The notes under the pieces are model-generated. The model searched no databases and was not told where the DNA came from. It saw only the letters and a program-made list of their open reading frames with translations. Both the position numbers and the translations under genes were made by a program. 64,000 bases of DNA. Origin: Eledone cirrhosa (taxonomy: Eukaryota). This document shows positions 2,971 to 59,225 of this stretch, in pieces; the stretch's first letter is position 1; each line of letters begins with the position of its first letter. The stretch covers positions 29,760,001 through 29,824,000 of the forward strand of contig OZ024746.1 of assembly GCA_964016885.1 (NCBI GenBank), written 5' to 3'.

Positions 2971-3708
2971 TCATTATTCTAGATCCATGTTATTAGCACT
3001 ATTTCAATCCAGACCTGCCAACCTCTAAAAACCATGAAAAACAGTGCCCCAAAACGGGGAGAAATGAGGTAAAATGGGGAGATTTTACATAATAAAAGAC
3101 AAACGAGTTTTCACAAGAGAAGATATCTCTTATCCACCCCAAAGTGGGTGGGAGATCTCCCCGTCGGACAGGGAGAGATGAGATGTCTATCAATCAATCA
3201 GATTCAAAGCATAAGGACAATATTGGTGCTTAGCTGGAAACCGAATTATTCACTGACTTTCTCGAGCATCAGTCAACCACCATATTTTTTAAGAACTTAC
3301 TTTTCGATGCTAATTAACCAGGTTCAATTAGGTCGATACTTACAGGGCTTCCTTCATACGTGACCGTAGTCAAATACAAAGTTCCTCGTCTTTCGGTAAG
3401 GAATTAACCCCTCGTTTAACCCGGAGTTTTTAAATGATACGCCAATTTTTACAATTGATAAATCTGTCGTCGTATTTGATAGCACCAATACACTTGTGCG
3501 CGCACACACACACAGAAACACACACACAGACACACACATACACACATACACACACATACACACACCAATACAAATATATTCGTGAGTTACTGACGGACGT
3601 GATAAAAAGTACTAAATGCCAAAGTAAAATTAATTAATTTATCATGGCTATACCGTGAGCTTTATTACTCTGGTGTTTCACTTGCACACTCATTGTATCA
3701 AGACAAGA

Positions 3709-3756
3709 GTTGTCTGATGATCCTGTGAGAGGAATGCAAAACTCCTGAGTAACAAC
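3709..3756 (+). ncRNA. Type-I hammerhead ribozyme, GAAA box damaged
   Basis: GTTGT-CTGATGA-TCCT gtgag AGGA-atgc AAAA-CTC ct GAG-TA-ACAAC; stems I, II and III pair. Confidence 0.65.
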
Positions 3757-3836
3757 ACTCACTGTTTAGCCTTAATAAGATTAATACTGGTGTATGGAGT
3801 ACTCTTTTCTTTCGGCCGTCAGTTACGTTCGGTATG

Positions 3837-3895
<59 letters not shown>

Positions 3896-3897
3896 AA

Positions 3898-3938
3898 CGA
3901 TGTACTAGTTTCAAGCTTATTAGCTATCGTCAGCATCG
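3898..3938 (-). ncRNA. Minimal type-I hammerhead ribozyme (family A)
   Basis: Minus strand: CGATG-CTGACGA-tAGCT aata AGCTt-GAAA-CTAG-TA-CATCG. Confidence 0.9.
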
Positions 3939-4308
3939 TATACCTTGCTGCCAGATGGTTGAACGTCTGAAAGTATATACTTTCCTTATGCATATTAACG
4001 GCTGAGCAGCCTAATTTGCATATCGAGTGAGTTCAGTCGGCCGGGCACACCAAAAACGATAAATGGAATAGAATGAAACGAAATTTCATTTCTCACTCTT
4101 AGTATGGCACTTACTTAAATGTAAGTATGTATGCATGTATACGTACATACATATATGTATACAGACGTACAGTAGTATGTATATATATATATATATACAT
4201 ACATGCACACATATATAAGTAAGTTCCGTACTAAGAGTGAGAAATGAAATTTCGTTTCATTCTATTCCATTTATCGTTTTCGGTGTGCCCGGCCGATTTT
4301 ATATATAT

Positions 4309-21534: not shown

Positions 21535-21781
21535 TGCATACATGTATATACGCATATATATATATAAATGGAAAAAATGAAACAACATTTCATTTCTCAC
21601 TCTTAGTACGGCTGTTACTTAAATATAAGTATGTATGCGTACATACATATATGTATACAGACGTACAGTAGTATGTATATATATACATACATGCACACAT
21701 ATATATATATATGTACGTATGGATTTACCGAACATTTATTATAATGCTCGGTTTGTTTGTAAACAAACATCCCGAATTAAG

Positions 21782-24047: not shown

Positions 24048-24133
<86 letters not shown>

Positions 24134-24242
24134 TAAACGGAATAGAAAATGCAGACAAATTGTTCACAGTTGAAAAATTAGGAATAAAAGAGTATTAGTG
24201 ATTGTATGGGTTAGTATTCAGTTGTGGTTTTAAGTTTTTAAG

Positions 24243-24280
24243 TTTTTACCGGTTGCGCATTTCTAAATGCTTTTCAAAAA
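24243..24280 (-). ncRNA. Hammerhead with U3-A8 core, GAAA>GCAA
   Basis: Minus strand: TTT-TTGAAAA-GCATTT ag AAATGC-GCAA-CCGG-TA-AAA. Confidence 0.6.
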
Positions 24281-24292
24281 TTTTTAGATAGA

Positions 24293-26113
24293 GTGTCCGT
24301 GTTGTTAGAAAACAACACATACTATGAAAAAACAGAAAACTACAAACACACCAAAACAATGGGGAACCTTTTGACCTTACTGAATAAATACCGCAACAGC
24401 TTAACCACAAAAGAGTTTAACTATATAAGCCACTTCAAATGCAATACAAGCTCTTTTTACGGCTTACCGAAACTCCACTAATGTAAACCCATAAACGATG
24501 CATGTGACACCTCAACCAACAATTACATTGAACTAACACCACCAGAAGACCTAAAACTCAGGCCAATTATAGCAGGCCCTACATGTGAAACCCACAGACT
24601 TAGCAACTTTCTGGACATCCTACTGAAACCCTTTCTACAACATATACAGAGCTACATACGAGATGACCTTGACATGCTGAAACACCTCCCTAAAACAGTA
24701 AGTGCAAATACAATTCTTGTCTCCTTTGACGTAATAAACCTCTACACAAACATACCCCACAACTATGGAATAACAGCAGTCCAATACTGGCTTAACACAC
24801 ACCCATCAGAAATACCGACACGCATCAACAAAGATTTTATCACTGACGGACTCCGCTTTATCCTACAAAATAACTACTTCACATTCAATGGTTCAACATA
24901 CAGACAAGTATCAGGTACGACAATGGGCACGAAAGTAGCACCCACATATGCCAACCTAGTCATGGGATTCCATGAACAACAAATATACAGTCAGTCCCTT
25001 CTCTTATTTGGAGACTCTTTCCACACACACCTCAAAGCCAATTGGAAAAGATATCTAGACGACTGCTTTATCCTATGGCAAGAAGACATGAACTCACTTA
25101 CTATGTTTAAAAACATGATAAACAACATAGATAATAACATACAATTCACAATAGAATCCAATCCCAAGGAATCAGCCTTCTTGGATATTCTCATCTCTGT
25201 AATAGACGGGAAATTAGATACAGATATATTCTATAAACCCACAGATTCCAAGCAATACCTCTTTTTCACATCAAGTCACCCAAAACATACAAAACTTAAC
25301 ATTCCTTACAATTTGGCCAAACGTATATGTACCATAGTATCAGATCCACCTAAACGGGAGCAAAGACTAAAGGAACTAAAAGACACCCTTATCTTAAGAG
25401 CCTTTCCACTTGAAATAATCAACAATGGAATAGACAGGGCAAAACACCTAAATCCCCATCAACTTAACAATCCAAAACAGAAAACCACACTCAACACCCT
25501 GCCATATGTATCCACTTTCAACCCCAGAAATACCGAAATGTTTGATCACCTACACAAAAACCTCCCCATCCTACTTAAAGATGTAAAAATGAAGTCTATT
25601 CTTGAAACACACAAGATCCTTAAAAGTAAAAGACAACCCAAATCACTAAAACGCATTCTCACTGGACCAAATATACCCAAACCAATCCTCAACCCTACAG
25701 TTACCAAATGTGGTAGAACAAACTGTGGAACGTGCCTCTACCTCACTGAAGGACAAAAATTTACATTTAAAGATGGCCAAACATTTACAGTAAAAAACAA
25801 TTTCACCTGCAACTCGGAGAACTTGATTTACGCAATAACTTGCGGTGGGTGCAAACACAACTACATAGGACAGACGGGCACCTCATTACGCAAAAGAATC
25901 ACCATCCACCGCCAACAAATCCGGGACGCTAGTACAAGAAAAATCCCCTTGAGCAGCCATATTGCGAACTGCGCAGGAATGACACTACCCAACTTTAAAA
26001 TCTTCCCCTTCTACAAGTGCTCAGATTCGTTCACACAGCAACAAAGAATAAACAAAGAAAATCTATTCCTTAACAAATTTAAACCAAAACTAAACGGGTT
26101 ATCACCCCAATAG
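24293..26113 (+). pseudogene. Penelope-like retroelement ORF (reverse transcriptase + Cys-rich linker + GIY-YIG endonuclease), 5'-truncated, one premature stop
   Basis: ORFs 24293-24481 and 24674-26113 are in the same frame, separated only by TAA at 24479-24481 (FYGLPKLH*, expected K). The intervening codons read ...LKLRPIIAGPTCETHRLSNFLDILLKPF. Motifs: SFDVINLYTNIP, GTTMGTKVAPTYANL, RYLDD, FLD..I, YKPTD, CGRTNCGTC linker, LIYAITCGGCKHNYIGQT, RITIHR (Neptune-like). Confidence 0.95.
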
Positions 26114-26504
26114 AATTGTCATAAAATATAAACACACATACGCACGGAGTGACAGATATATGTGTTTGTATGTGTGCATGTATATAATTATCACTACCAT
26201 TAAAGACCAGAGACCAATTCTGTAGAATCAGGTTTATTCGTTGACAGACCATGCCTTTGTGTGACCAACACATCCATGTTAAACCCTGCACGTGCACACA
26301 CATATATCTATATATATATGCGCACACAGAATTCACCACTGTCGGTTGCGGGGCCCAATCTACATGAAGAACTCAATGTGATCAGAATGACTTGTATTTT
26401 AATTTCACTGCCCTAACTTCTTATATTATGGAAACAATATATGTGTATGTATGTATATATATATATTTGGAGGCCATTTCTCTGTGTGTGGGTGTATGTA
26501 TGTG

Positions 26505-26546
<42 letters not shown>

Positions 26547-26731
26547 TGCATGTGGATGTATGTATTGTGTGTGTGTGTGTGTGTATGTATGTGTGTATCT
26601 GGATGTATGCGTATGTGTATATATATATATATGTGTGTGTGTGTGAATATATATGTGTGTGTATGTGTATATATGTGTGTGTGTGTGTGTGTATGTATGT
26701 GTGTATCTGGATGTATGTGTATGTATATATA

Positions 26732-26766
<35 letters not shown>

Positions 26767-26837
26767 TTGTGTGTATGTGCATATATGTGTGTGTGTATGT
26801 GTGTATGTATATGTATGTGTGTGTGTATGTATGTGTG

Positions 26838-26874
<37 letters not shown>

Positions 26875-27226
26875 ATGTATATGTATATGTATGTATGTGT
26901 GGATGAAGGTATGTGTGTATATATAGGTGTAAGTGCACTAAATCCCTTTCTATCAATCTCCCCTCTCCTACCGAGCACAGGAAGATATATGTATGTAAAT
27001 TGCTTCCACCCCCTCACTGACCAGCAGCTGGCCATCTGGCCATTGCTAAATTTGACCTTTATAAAATAACCCACACCCCCAAATAACTTCTCATTCACTA
27101 CCAGAAGCAGTCAACGAGCTGCTACCAAGATGAAAACTACTATGAAATCCCACAATGAATTTCATACTTGAATTTTCAAATCTCAAATTTTAACTCTTCT
27201 TATTATTAATTTCTCTTAATATTAAT

Positions 27227-27275
27227 CAACATTTGAAAAGATGGCTTTTGCAGACCCATCGAAACCGGTCATTTT
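27227..27275 (+). ncRNA. Hammerhead with U3-A8 core in the PLE 3' terminus
   Basis: AACAT-TTGAAAA-GATGG cttttgcagac CCATC-GAAA-CCGG-TC-ATTTT. Confidence 0.75.
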
Positions 27276-27405
27276 TTATACCCTTTATTATTTCCTTACC
27301 TTATAAAATTATATGTTTTTTCACAAAAAAGTATTCTGTCTCTTATATATTCCATGTGCCATTACCAACCTCAATTTTCTCTATAACCTTCGTTTTGTGT
27401 ACACT

Positions 27406-30335: not shown

Positions 30336-31299
<964 letters not shown>

Positions 31300-31314
31300 A
31301 TATATAAGTATGCT

Positions 31315-31598
31315 TTTATCGTTTTCGGTGCGTCCGGCCGATTAACTCACTCGATATGCAAGTTAGGCTGCTCAGCCGTTAATATGCATAGGGAAAGTGT
31401 ATACTTTCAGACGTTCAATCATCTGGCAGGACGGTATACGATGCTGATGACAGCTAATAAGCTTGAAACTAGTACATCGTTCCTTTGTCTGTGTTGAACA
31501 AAAGGGAAACGATGGTTGTTAAACAATGTACGTCTTAATTCGGGATGTTTGTTTACAAACAAACCGACCATTATAATAATGGCTCGGTAAATCCATAC

Positions 31599-31641
<43 letters not shown>

Positions 31642-31770
31642 CATGTATGTATATGTATATATACATACTACTGTACGTCTGTATACATATATACATGTAC
31701 GTATACACACTTATATTTAAGTAACAGCCGTACTAAGAGTGAGAAATGAAATTTCGTTGCATTTTTTCCA
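31315..31770 (+). mobile_element. ~456-nt non-coding HHR retroelement monomer (family A, retrozyme-like)
   Basis: Homologous to 3896-4216 (minus, permuted), 4217-4296 (plus) and 21567-21781 (minus). Contains one HHR and an internal (TA)n tract. Confidence 0.8.
31439..31479 (+). ncRNA. Minimal type-I hammerhead ribozyme (family A)
   Basis: CGATG-CTGATGA-cAGCT aata AGCTt-GAAA-CTAG-TA-CATCG. Confidence 0.9.
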
Positions 31771-53552: not shown

Positions 53553-54775
53553 CAACCTCACCATCACTAATAACAACGACAACAATAATCTCACCATCAT
53601 CACCACCACCAACAACAACAATAGCAACAGCCTTACCATCACCAGCAACAACAATAACACCACCAGCAACAACAATACCACCATCAGCAGCAACAACAGC
53701 AACAGCCTCACCATCAATAATAACAACCACAACAACAATAATCTCACCATCACCACCACCACCAACAACAATAGCAACAACCTCACCATCACCACCACCA
53801 CCAACAACAATAGCAACAGCCTCACCATCAATAACAACAACAACAACAATAACCTCACCATAACCACCACCACCAACAACAATAGCAACAGCTTCACCAT
53901 CAATAATAACAACAACAACAACAATAATCTCACCATAACCACCACCACCAACACCAACAATAGCAACAGCCTCACCATCAATAACAACAACAACAACAAT
54001 AACCTCACCATAACCACCACCACCAACAACAATAGCAACAGCTTCACCATCAATAATAACAACCACAACAACAATAATCTCACCATAACCACCACCACCA
54101 ACAACAATAGCAACAACCTCACCATCACCACCACCAACAACAATAGCAACAGCCTCACCATCAATAACAACAACAACAACAATAACCTCACCATAACCAC
54201 CACCACCAACAACAATAGCAACAGCTTCACCATCAATAATAACAACCACAACAACAATAATCTCACCATAACCACCACCACCAACAACAATAGCAACAAC
54301 CTCACCATCAATAATAACAACAACAATAACAACAACAATAATCTCACCATCACCACCACCACCAACAACAATAGCAACAACCTCACCATCACCACCACCA
54401 ACAACAATAGCAACAGCCTCACCATCAATAATAACAACAACAACAATGACCTCACCATAACCACCACCACCAACAACAATAGCAACAGCTTCACCATCAA
54501 TAATAACAACAACAACAACAATAATCTCACCATAACCACCACCACCAACACCAACAATAGCAACAGCCTCACCATCACCAGCAACAACAACAACACCACC
54601 AGCAACAACAATAACATCATCAGCAGCAACAATAGCAACAGCCTCACCATCAATAATAACAACAACAACAACAATAACCTCACCATAACCACCACCACCA
54701 ACAATAATAGCAACAGCTTCACCACCACTAATAACAATAATAATATCCTCACCATCACGACCATCAATAATAATT
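53553..54775. repeat. Trinucleotide-derived (CAA/CAC) higher-order minisatellite
   Basis: 30-39-bp units anchored on CTCACCAT, alternating ACC-rich and AAC-rich types. Confidence 0.92.
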
Positions 54776-55774: not shown

Positions 55775-55870
55775 ATATAATTACGGTATGTACACATTTC
55801 TTCTAAGTTTGAATTTACACCTAATTGTGTATGGTTGACGGTATATTTAGTTAGTTTCTACATGTCCAGA

Positions 55871-58870
55871 GACAACAATCTCACCATCAGCAGCAACAAT
55901 AAATAAAACCACCATCTACAGCAACAACAATCTCACCATCAACAGCAACAATAAAATCACCATCTCCAGCAACAATAAATAAAACCACCATCTCCAGCAA
56001 CAACAATCTCACTATCAGCAGCAATAAAACCACCATCTCCAGCAACAACAATCTCACCATCAGCAGCAATAAAACCACCATATCCAGCAACAACAATCTC
56101 ACATCAGCAGCAATAAATCCACCATCTCCAGCAACAACAATCTCACTATCAGCAACAATAAATAAAACCACCATCTCCAGCAACAAAAATCTCACTATCA
56201 GCAGCAATAAATAAAACCAACATCACCAGCAACAACAATCTCACCAACAGCAGCAACAATAAATAAAACCACCATCTCCAGCAACAACAATCTCACCATC
56301 AGCAGCAATAAATAAAACCACCATGTCCAGCAACAACAATCTCACTATCAGCAGCAACAATAAATAAAACCACCATCTACAGCAACAACAATCTCACCAA
56401 CAGCAACAATAAAACCACCATCTCCAGCAACAACAATCTCACCATCAGCAGCAATAAATAAAACCACCATCTCCAGCAATAAGAATCTCATCAACAGCAG
56501 CAATAAAACCACCATCTCCAGCAACAACAATCTCACATCAGCAGCAATAAAACCACCATCTCCAGCAACAACACTCTCAACATTAGCAACAATAAATAAA
56601 ACCACCATCTCCAGCCACAACAATCTCACTATCAGCAGCAATAAAACCACCATCTCCAGCAACAACAATCTCAACATCAGCAGCAATAAATAAAACCACC
56701 ATCACCAGCAACAACAATCTCACCAACAGCAGCAACAATAAATAAAACCACCATCTCCAGCAACAACAATCTCACCATCAGCAACAATAAATAAAACCAC
56801 CATCTCCAGCAACAACAATCTCACCATCAGCAACAATAAATAAAACCACCATCACCAGCAACAACAATCTCAACATCAGCAACAATAAATAAAACCACCA
56901 TCTCCAGCAACAACAATCTCACCATCAGCAACAATAAATAAAACCACCATCTCCAGCAACAACAATCTCACCATCAGCAACAATAAATAAAACCACCATC
57001 ACCAGCAACAACAATCTCACCATCAGCAACAATAAATAAAACCACCATCTCCAGCAACAACAATCTCACTATCAGCAGCAATAAAACCACCATCTCCAGC
57101 AACAACAATCTCAACATCAGCAACAATAAATAAAACCACCATCTCCAGCAACAACAATCTCACTATCAGCAGCAATAAAACCACCATCTCCAGCAACAAC
57201 AATCTCACCATCAGCAACAATAAATAAAACCACCATCTCCAGCAACAACAATCTCACTATCAGCAGCAATAAAACCACCATCTCCAGCAACAACAATCTC
57301 ACCATCAGCAACAATAAATAAAACCACCATCTCCAGCAACAACAATCTCACCATCAGCAACAATAAATAAAACCACCATCTCCAGCAACAACAATCTCAC
57401 CATCAGCAGCAATAAATAAAACCACCATCACCAGCAACAACAATCTCACCAACAGCTGCAACAATAAATAAAACCACCATCTCCAGCAACAACAATCTCA
57501 CCATCAGCAGCAACAATAAATAAAACCACCATCTACAGCAACAACAATCTCACCATCAACAGCAACAATAAAACCACCATCTCCAGCAATAACAATCTCA
57601 CCATCAGCAGCAATAAAACCACCATCTCCAGCAACAACAATCTCACATCAGCAACAACAATAAATAAAACCACCATCTCCAGCAATAACAATCTCACCAG
57701 CAGCAGCAATAAAACCATCATCTCCAGCAACAACAATCTCACATCAGCAACAACAATAAATAAAACCACCATCTCCAGCAATAACAATCTCACCAGCAGC
57801 AGCAATAAAACCATCATCTCCAGCAACAACAATCTCACCATCAGCAGCAATAAAACCACCATCTCCAGCAACAAAATCTCACCAACAGCAACAATAAATA
57901 AAACCACCATCTCCAGCAATAACAATCTCACCTGCAGCAGCAATAAAACCATCATCTCCAGCAACAACAATCTCACCATCAGCAGCAATAAAACCACCAT
58001 CTCCAGCAACAACAATCTCACCATCAGCAACAATAAATAAAACCACCATCTCCAGCAATAACAATCTCACCAGCAGCAGCAATAAAACCATCATCTCCAG
58101 CAATAACAATCTCACCAGCAGCAGCAATAAAACCACCATCTCCAGCAACAACAATCTCACCAGCAGCAGCAATAAAACCATCATCTCCAGCAATAACAAT
58201 CTCAACATCAGCAGCAATAAAACCACCATCTCCAGCAACAACAATCTCACATCAGCAGCAACAATAAATAAAACCACCATCTCCAGCAACAACAATCTCA
58301 CCAGCAGCAGCAATAAAACCATCATCTCCAGCAATAACAATCTCAACATCAGCAGCAATAAAACCACCATCTCCAGCAACAACAATCTCACATCAGCAGC
58401 AACAATAAATAAAACCACCATCTCCAGCAACAACAATCTCACCAGCAGCAGAAATAAAACCACCATCTCCAGCAACAACAATCTCACATCAGCAGCAACA
58501 ATAAATAAAACCACCATCTCCAGCAATAACAATCTCAACATCAGCAGCAATAAAACCACCATCTCCAGCAACAACAATCTCACATCAGCAGCAGCAATAA
58601 AACCACCATCTCCAGCAACAACAATCTCACCAACAGCAACAATAAAACCACCATCTCCAGCAACAACAATCTCACATCAGCAGCAACAATAAATAAAACC
58701 ACCATCTCCAGCAATAACAATCTCAACATCAGCAGCAATAAAACCACCATCTCCAGCAACAACAATCTCACCTTCAGCAGCAATAAAACCATCATCTCCA
58801 GCAACAACAATCTCACCTTCAGCAGCAATAAAACCATCATCTCCAGCAACAACAATCTCACCATCAGTAA
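55871..58870. repeat. Minisatellite, ~42-50-bp unit, ~65 copies
   Basis: AAT(AAAT)AAAACCACCATCTCCAGCAACAACAATCTCACCATCAGCAGC repeated. Confidence 0.95.
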
Positions 58871-59225
58871 CTATAACAATCACAATCACAACAACCCTCT
58901 AAGTAAACCGTTGTTGATATGCTATAGAGGTTTGAATGCCTCATCCATTCATAGAAATATACTGAGTTTAGAGAATACAGATCACAGATCACACATTTCT
59001 CTCGCTTTATCCTACTATTGAAACATTTTTTAAAACCTCTCTCTTCTTAACATTTTCCTTCAGAGACGAACAATAGCTGCAATTTATGCATTGCTTGTTG
59101 GAAGGCATTCTTCTACTCTTTTAACTGGCGTCTTTGTAGACCATTCAAATCAGCTGGATAATTGATTTCCAAATGTGTATATGCATTCTTTCTTATATAT
59201 TTTCTTCTCTCTGTGTCTCTTTCAG

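Follow-up and report, generated by a model that had tools for sequence, protein, structure and literature searches.

Non-LTR retrozymes have been described from coral, mussel and axolotl (PMC7229834). In the available text of that report these metazoan elements are short non-coding tandem units (150-450 nt, <50% GC) with one type I hammerhead each and a self-paired predicted circle, and Penelope-like elements (PLEs) are found in the same genomes. Circles were shown, and reverse transcription of the circles was proposed there (2020), with PLEs as a candidate. Xenopus retrozymes have been presented as PLE derivatives (10.64898/2026.07.22.740005). As far as the available text of that preprint goes, they are non-autonomous tandem hammerhead repeats that occur as monomers, dimers and multimers together with PLEs; the evidence is co-occurrence and pseudo-LTR (pLTR) homology in Xenopus, and local DNA amplification is discussed, with the mechanism left open. 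Eight of nine predicted Xenopus retrozyme dimers did not cleave.

Endonuclease-bearing PLEs (the Neptune, Hydra and Naiad clades, PMC8557442; the anole Poseidon element PAc, PMC11167929) provide a second comparison. The available portions of these papers describe 5' truncation, partial tandems, an inverted second arm with a tail at one end only (PMC8557442), two internal reverse transcription start sites whose interval is spanned by the tail (PMC11167929), (TA)n or AT-rich targets and a hammerhead upstream of the starts. Partial tandems occur as well in PLEs lacking canonical hammerheads (PMC8557442), and anole PLE hammerhead mutants still insert, uncleaved RNA being used in vitro (PMC11167929). 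Non-autonomous Chlamys elements, MRC1 among them (PMC8557442), are non-coding PLE dependants with multicopy head-to-tail insertions.

The repeat reported here, from the 3.0-Gb Eledone cirrhosa assembly, resembles all of these. The sequence-level features of non-LTR retrozymes tested are present: a hammerhead, tandems, non-coding units, low GC, self-pairing and PLEs in the genome. Unlike the metazoan retrozymes with demonstrated circles (PMC7229834), this one is known from genome sequence alone and its circle is predicted. The insertions have the 5' truncations, partial tandems, inverted arms, one-end tail, two internal starts and targets of endonuclease PLEs, the hammerhead likewise lying upstream of the starts, and the multicopy head-to-tail form of the Chlamys elements. 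In the text available (PMC8557442), the 3' ends of those non-autonomous elements are generally like those of an autonomous family, and most Chlamys elements lack hammerheads, unlike the repeat here. We propose that it is a non-LTR retrozyme, the predicted circular RNA of which would be copied by a reverse transcriptase borrowed from PLEs, and give this reading a probability of roughly two in three. Anatomy, copy number, ends, arm pairing, unit homogeneity and the seamless cut site were read directly from the genome.

The repeat unit and its hammerhead

The window is the whole stretch of 64,000 nt that was analysed, in which (TA)n is abundant. It contains one complete copy of the repeat, with the following features. 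S and L denote the short and long 3' sites.

31224..31306, no strand: (TA)n run, at the insertion site (sequence)
31307..31314, minus strand: 8-nt inverted stub matching the S end, with (TA)n outward of the stub (sequence)
31315..31770, plus strand: complete repeat unit, an older solo copy ending at the L site (sequence comparison)
31413..31499, plus strand: extended stem I, 31413-31434 paired with 31482-31499, past a 3-nt/1-nt internal loop (predicted fold, alignment)
31438..31480, plus strand: type I hammerhead (motif and pairing; activity predicted)
31438-31443/31475-31480, plus strand: hammerhead stem I (motif and pairing)
31444-31450, plus strand: hammerhead core (motif and pairing)
31451-31464, plus strand: hammerhead stem II, with a mismatch at its base and a 6-nt loop (motif and pairing)
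31465-31468, plus strand: hammerhead GAAA (motif and pairing)
31469-31472, plus strand: palindromic 4-nt helix III loop (motif and pairing)
31603..31700, plus strand: internal (TA)/(CATG)/(TGTA) microsatellite-like stretch, self-complementary (sequence and folding)
31712..31770, plus strand: tail of ~60 nt, from the S site (after 31711) to the L site (end mapping)

Unit numbering follows a natural copy (L002:1501-1932), and window position equals 31314 plus unit position up to ~270. The predicted cleavage point is 31474/31475 (unit position 160/161). The best relatives of the window copy are ~93% identical, none above 93%. This copy is unable to release a unit-length RNA or circle because it has one hammerhead only. 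An inverted-repeat element with no recognised hammerhead lies directly to its left (30537-31260), and is common beside other copies at (TA)n.

Identification of the hammerhead is based on motif and base pairing, and not on Rfam, scans of which did not call a hammerhead and returned only microsatellite-driven miRNA matches and one chance snoRNA match. Folds of isolated 61-76 nt segments were not significant and lacked the hammerhead fold. The one-pair helix III with a palindromic tetraloop is as in HHR_Amex1, and the U-U mismatch at the base of helix II as in HHR_Amex2; axolotl retrozymes with these traits cleave well only as dimers, according to the available text (PMC7229834). Stem I reaches ~24 pairs in the predicted circle, two pairs of the extended part being broken in the window copy, and the active fold is predicted to lie 2 kcal/mol above the minimum in one young monomer. 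Among 200 distinct copies, core letters are retained in 191-200, with core variation only at the free N7, and 4370 of 4763 cells of the 24 stem pairs are paired, one position being a near-constant mismatch. Common subfamily variants in these copies keep stem I pairing in five of six polymorphic pairs. Covariation of the main stem I pair is not stronger than linkage among other subfamily markers, and since the variants are linked subfamily markers the covariation counts as few events.

A 23-mer from the hammerhead has 12,465 exact matches genome-wide (main family), a motif of the ~466 nt subfamily 8,490, and a motif of a very young 422-424 nt subfamily 640, with no match to the reversed control in each case. 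The repeat is therefore not a product of chance, given 12,465 matches against none for the 23-mer. In total the genome contains at least 21,000 units in two subfamilies, both dispersed and tandem. Natural head-to-tail arrays have 2 to 39 or more units with consecutive hammerheads and periods of 420-435 nt and 454-502 nt, at or above the 150-450 nt range in the text available for metazoan retrozymes (PMC7229834). The unit (GC 0.36-0.37) has no LTRs and is non-coding, with no meaningful ORF: in three natural arrays the longest sense ATG ORFs are 49-74 aa and full of microsatellite, and there is one low-complexity antisense frame of 134 aa. Circular folds of 7 of 14 natural monomers gave z-scores of -5.0 to -7.3 against 30 shuffles, owing partly to the palindromic microsatellite. 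The unit is also present as contigs in three sequencing runs of unrecorded kind, which has no bearing on expression. One unit (L034) is inserted in an apparent coding sequence of another element, presumably Helitron-like judging by its translation.

The sequence-only reading had described the window copy as a ~456-nt retrozyme-like element with a single hammerhead and no ORF. Its start, hammerhead and end stood when the sequence was re-read, and motif, pairing and ORF lengths in natural arrays bear out one hammerhead and no ORF per unit. The stated length is that of this copy, in which a longer (TA) run adds to the 420-435 nt typical of the family. The microsatellite-like stretch at 31603-31700 exceeds its length in most copies. 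The retrozyme-like assignment agrees with the non-coding tandem unit, one type I hammerhead in each, 36-37% GC and PLEs in the genome. The family had also been called possibly undescribed. The repeat is real, very abundant and recently active, and the kind of element is already described; in the literature searched, which includes few subscription papers and sets supplementary species lists aside, we found no report of this family or of a cephalopod retrozyme. Nor did that literature, with its few subscription papers, include a retrozyme with PLE-type ends or young multi-unit arms.

Insertion ends and two-armed insertions

Three further pieces of the family were mapped in the window, along with other elements that carry hammerhead motifs.

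3896..4216, minus strand: arm of a two-armed insertion, with an end-to-start junction at 4064/4063 and a hammerhead core at 3933 (alignment)
4217..4296, plus strand: second, head-to-head arm, with an end-to-start junction at 4269/4270 and a non-canonical 3' end (alignment)
21565..21781, minus strand: copy truncated at its 5' end that stops at the L site, with (TA)n after it and no hammerhead; 84% identical (alignment)
4574 (plus); 8658 (plus), 48215 (minus), 48299 (plus); 21384 (plus), 23623 (minus), 23774 (plus); 32368 (minus), 32406 (plus): other hammerhead-motif families (motif)

The arm at 3896-4216 (92% identity over 169 nt) stops 8 nt beyond the cut site, a non-canonical 3' end. The other hammerhead-motif families number at least four, are mostly inverted two-armed insertions in (TA)n, and account for many of the palindromes of the window. 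A degenerate hammerhead-like motif with an altered GAAA occurs at 3706-3765, and two related minisatellite-like tandem arrays at 53553-54773 and 55861-58887.

Ends were mapped for 176 runs at 96 non-redundant loci (C1). The source was 120 loci taken from the first matches of two exact motifs, a sample biased to motif-holding copies; pieces of microsatellite only and runs touching a locus edge were left out. Of the 3' ends, 79 lie at S (~position 374), 74 at L (~434), some 60 nt apart, and 23 elsewhere. A TA run follows 143 of the 153 canonical 3' ends; insertions sit in (TA)n runs, where target-site duplications are unreadable. The 5' ends show scatter along the unit, and a modest surplus at positions 1-20 is possibly an alignment artefact. 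There is no peak at the hammerhead cut site (5 observed, 3.8 expected; 4 of 86 in a subset chosen by a downstream motif).

Head-to-head pairs (n=59) include 15 with one non-canonical end and 44 with two canonical ends. The latter comprise 42 S+L, 2 S+S and no L+L pairs; without two duplicated rows the S+L count is 40 of 42 (p ~4e-10 against a 50:50 expectation). Later loci, read by eye, gave 27 S+L pairs of 28 and one L+L (L345). This arm pairing matches the one-end tail and the two reverse transcription starts of PLEs, and mobilisation by a PLE enzyme is thus strongly indicated; from these sequence footprints we regard it as very likely. The insertion footprint, with two fixed 3' ends, scattered 5' ends and S+L two-armed insertions, is what is new here; fixed 3' ends, two-armed insertions and microsatellite targeting are not described for retrozymes in the available text of PMC7229834.

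Differences from endonuclease PLEs are the lack of an ORF in the repeat and a tail of ~60 nt, compared to 30-40 in the portions available (PMC8557442, PMC11167929). Both starts here precede TA-like sequence that matches the target, whereas the PAc start site is not homologous to the cut DNA in the text available (PMC11167929). In the window copy, the L end of the tail (31712-31770) would correspond to the second reverse transcription start, and the short stub at 31307-31314 is suggestive of a minimal second arm.

These results bear on the claim that the copies are permutations of one circle. The end is joined directly to the start in both arms at 3896-4296, as had been noted, and a further piece near 21567-21781 is real. 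Natural tandem arrays beyond the 4 kb locus also contain the end-to-start junction. Fixed ends in all copies, which would have contradicted permutation, were not found in the 176 runs: the 5' ends vary as claimed, but the 3' ends are at two sites and the copies are not freely permuted. The end-to-start junction that had been pointed to falls on the L priming site and differs from the predicted ligation point, which follows unit position 160.

Young multi-unit insertions and the template

The youngest subfamily forms the longest arrays, with up to 21 near-identical units per arm (13 insertions, 144 pieces). Substitution distances, which exclude gaps and microsatellite, are 0.0008 within and 0.0025 between these insertions, and 0.0016 within and 0.0078 between insertions of the 466-nt subfamily (8 insertions). 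The sample of the young subfamily is biased toward long arrays because it was reached via a long array; its first 100 matches fall in 17 loci, compared to 74 for the whole family. One insertion (L312-L313) has three arms of ~21, 8 and 9 units over a span of ~16 kb. Of 181 passes over the cut site, 180 are seamless, and the other is a 5' truncation. At L315, two private substitutions are present in nine of nine units across both arms; searching the genome with a pattern for one of these gave 18 matches, 8 in L315 and 10 solitary, and the L315 haplotype is absent from all 10. A private variant at L343 is present in five of five informative units.

Tandems and permuted copies alone are indecisive for a circle, as partial tandems are also made by PLEs that lack a canonical hammerhead. 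The simplest account of the young arrays is that one unit was copied repeatedly as it was inserted. Indirect support for a template that was probably a circular RNA comes from the multi-unit arms of young insertions, from private variants shared by all units of an insertion and from the seamless cut site.

The insertions could instead have been PLE-mobilised from a linear template: read-through RNA from homogeneous arrays that stays uncleaved, or linear monomers strung together by template jumps from end to end, with any circles as by-products. Long homogeneous arrays exist and could be transcribed; one of them (L342, 12 units, variant 339G) could be the linear source for L323, and the chimeras show that template switching is common in this repeat. 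Hammerhead activity is also dispensable for the anole PLE in vitro, in the available text (PMC11167929). For L315, however, a genome-wide variant search found no other array in the assembly fit as a linear template, and no multi-unit source with its haplotype, although the source locus may be missing from the assembly. For a variant to be fixed in every unit, an array of near-zero age must have passed through a single-unit bottleneck, and the hammerhead fold is retained across subfamilies. Template jumps often leave scars, as in R2; here the cut site has neither added nor lost bases in 180 of 181 passes. We consider a linear template unlikely.

It is also conceivable that PLE-type insertions began as one or two units and became a pseudo-LTR-derived satellite as unequal crossing-over or slippage lengthened them. 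Such a model is discussed in the accessible part of the Xenopus preprint (10.64898/2026.07.22.740005). An array at L257-L258 (C4:375.754-375.771 Mb) has at least 39 units, is satellite-like, and has a higher-order period of ~11-12 units; these higher-order repeats favour later growth, and thus DNA-level expansion also happens. The youngest insertions, by contrast, are the longest, and are near-identical within and across both arms with mostly singleton variants, which makes later growth quite improbable as their origin. Arrays that alternate two unit types (ABAB; L144, L329) could result from DNA duplication or from a dimeric template. L327 changes haplotype mid-arm, and the two arms of L316 differ. 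Older tandem neighbours are 5.7% apart, compared to 9.0% between loci.

Candidate helper and proposed mechanism

Autonomous PLEs are present in the same genome as the hammerhead repeat. Family A encodes a 543-aa frame with reverse transcriptase (RT) and GIY-YIG domains at window positions 24482-26110, and its copies are 99% identical. The element itself (24131-27330) is young, with a long 3' region rich in microsatellite; it is head to head with a family B 3' arm at 24131-24306, a two-family chimera. Family A has no homology to the unit and was rejected as its parent. Family B has two ends of its own and 9,151 exact matches of its 3' motif, and a short 3' motif of this family resembles the L end of the hammerhead unit. 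Both families carry a cysteine linker of the kind given for Neptune and related clades in the available text of PMC8557442. A short two-armed element, family C (L004:1900-2100, L141, L186, L362; one window copy), has a long helix III-like hairpin, short and long ends of its own ~70 nt apart, and no ORF was seen.

Direct junctions without TA join the unit to family B or its relatives at five loci (L239, L058, L023, L117, L124), and unit chimeras were also found with three other endonuclease-bearing PLE pieces (L004, L142, L348), family C and others. The 3' flank screen was cluttered by microsatellite false matches, and only individual rows were used. Chimeras were rejected as proof of a partner, as several PLE families are involved and PLE-PLE chimeras occur in the window. 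Family B as the partner of the repeat is a tentative lead. Among the few PLE families of this genome examined, no pseudo-LTR homology to the unit was found apart from the short family B 3' motif. Compared to the Xenopus account as available (10.64898/2026.07.22.740005), a homologous pLTR was thus not found here, but there is a PLE-specific footprint and the youngest insertions are already multimeric.

Another possibility is that the unit is no more than a pseudo-LTR belonging to an autonomous coding PLE, whose 5'-truncated ends the copies would be. PLE-type ends would fit this, as would single chimeric junctions to PLE coding sequence (L239, L249, L348, L004, L142). What lies upstream of a unit, however, is another unit, up to 21 times, and across ~200 loci sampled of thousands there is no recurrent coding or UTR sequence running into the unit, no autonomous element with the unit as terminal repeat, no recurrent ORF beside it and no RT plus GIY-YIG ORF joined to it. 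The helix III motif is not shared by any other family at the spacings searched; all 81 matches with other spacings look like indel variants of the same repeat family. Neither shared upstream flanks (at the loci sampled) nor one-armed young loci revealed an autonomous parent, and kilobase-spaced hammerheads, considered as one, proved to be long arrays. The pseudo-LTR interpretation is largely refuted in this sample, and we regard it as very improbable.

Under the retrozyme reading, transcription, cleavage, circle and enzyme are putative steps of the following cycle. A tandem locus would be transcribed, and neighbouring hammerheads, probably acting as dimers, would excise a monomer at unit position 160/161, which a host ligase may close into a circle. 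The enzyme would be a PLE protein, probably dimeric, that nicks a (TA)n run on both strands and begins DNA synthesis within the RNA at S and L, ~60 nt apart, where the TA-like stretch after each site could anneal to the target. Each subunit would go round the circle a varying number of times, the two products would be joined head to head, and some arrays would expand later at the DNA level. The fullest version of this reading could go either way. In it, the repeat is a still-active retrozyme whose copies record rolling-circle, target-primed reverse transcription of a ribozyme-made circle by a dimeric Penelope-like enzyme, each arm, up to ~9 kb long, being made in a single step. The likely helper would be family B, of Neptune type, although no pseudo-LTR is shared.

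The spread of retrozymes in animals has been a proposal since 2020, and the 2026 preprint leaves the mechanism open. This family offers base-level genomic signs of circle copying and of a borrowed PLE enzyme, together with defined start sites and near-identical young copies. Because these genomic signs, start sites, young copies and young candidate PLE proteins share one genome, the model is directly testable. If it is true, target-primed insertion would use a circular RNA as its template, a single event could produce tandem arrays many kilobases long, and the hammerhead would have a clear role.
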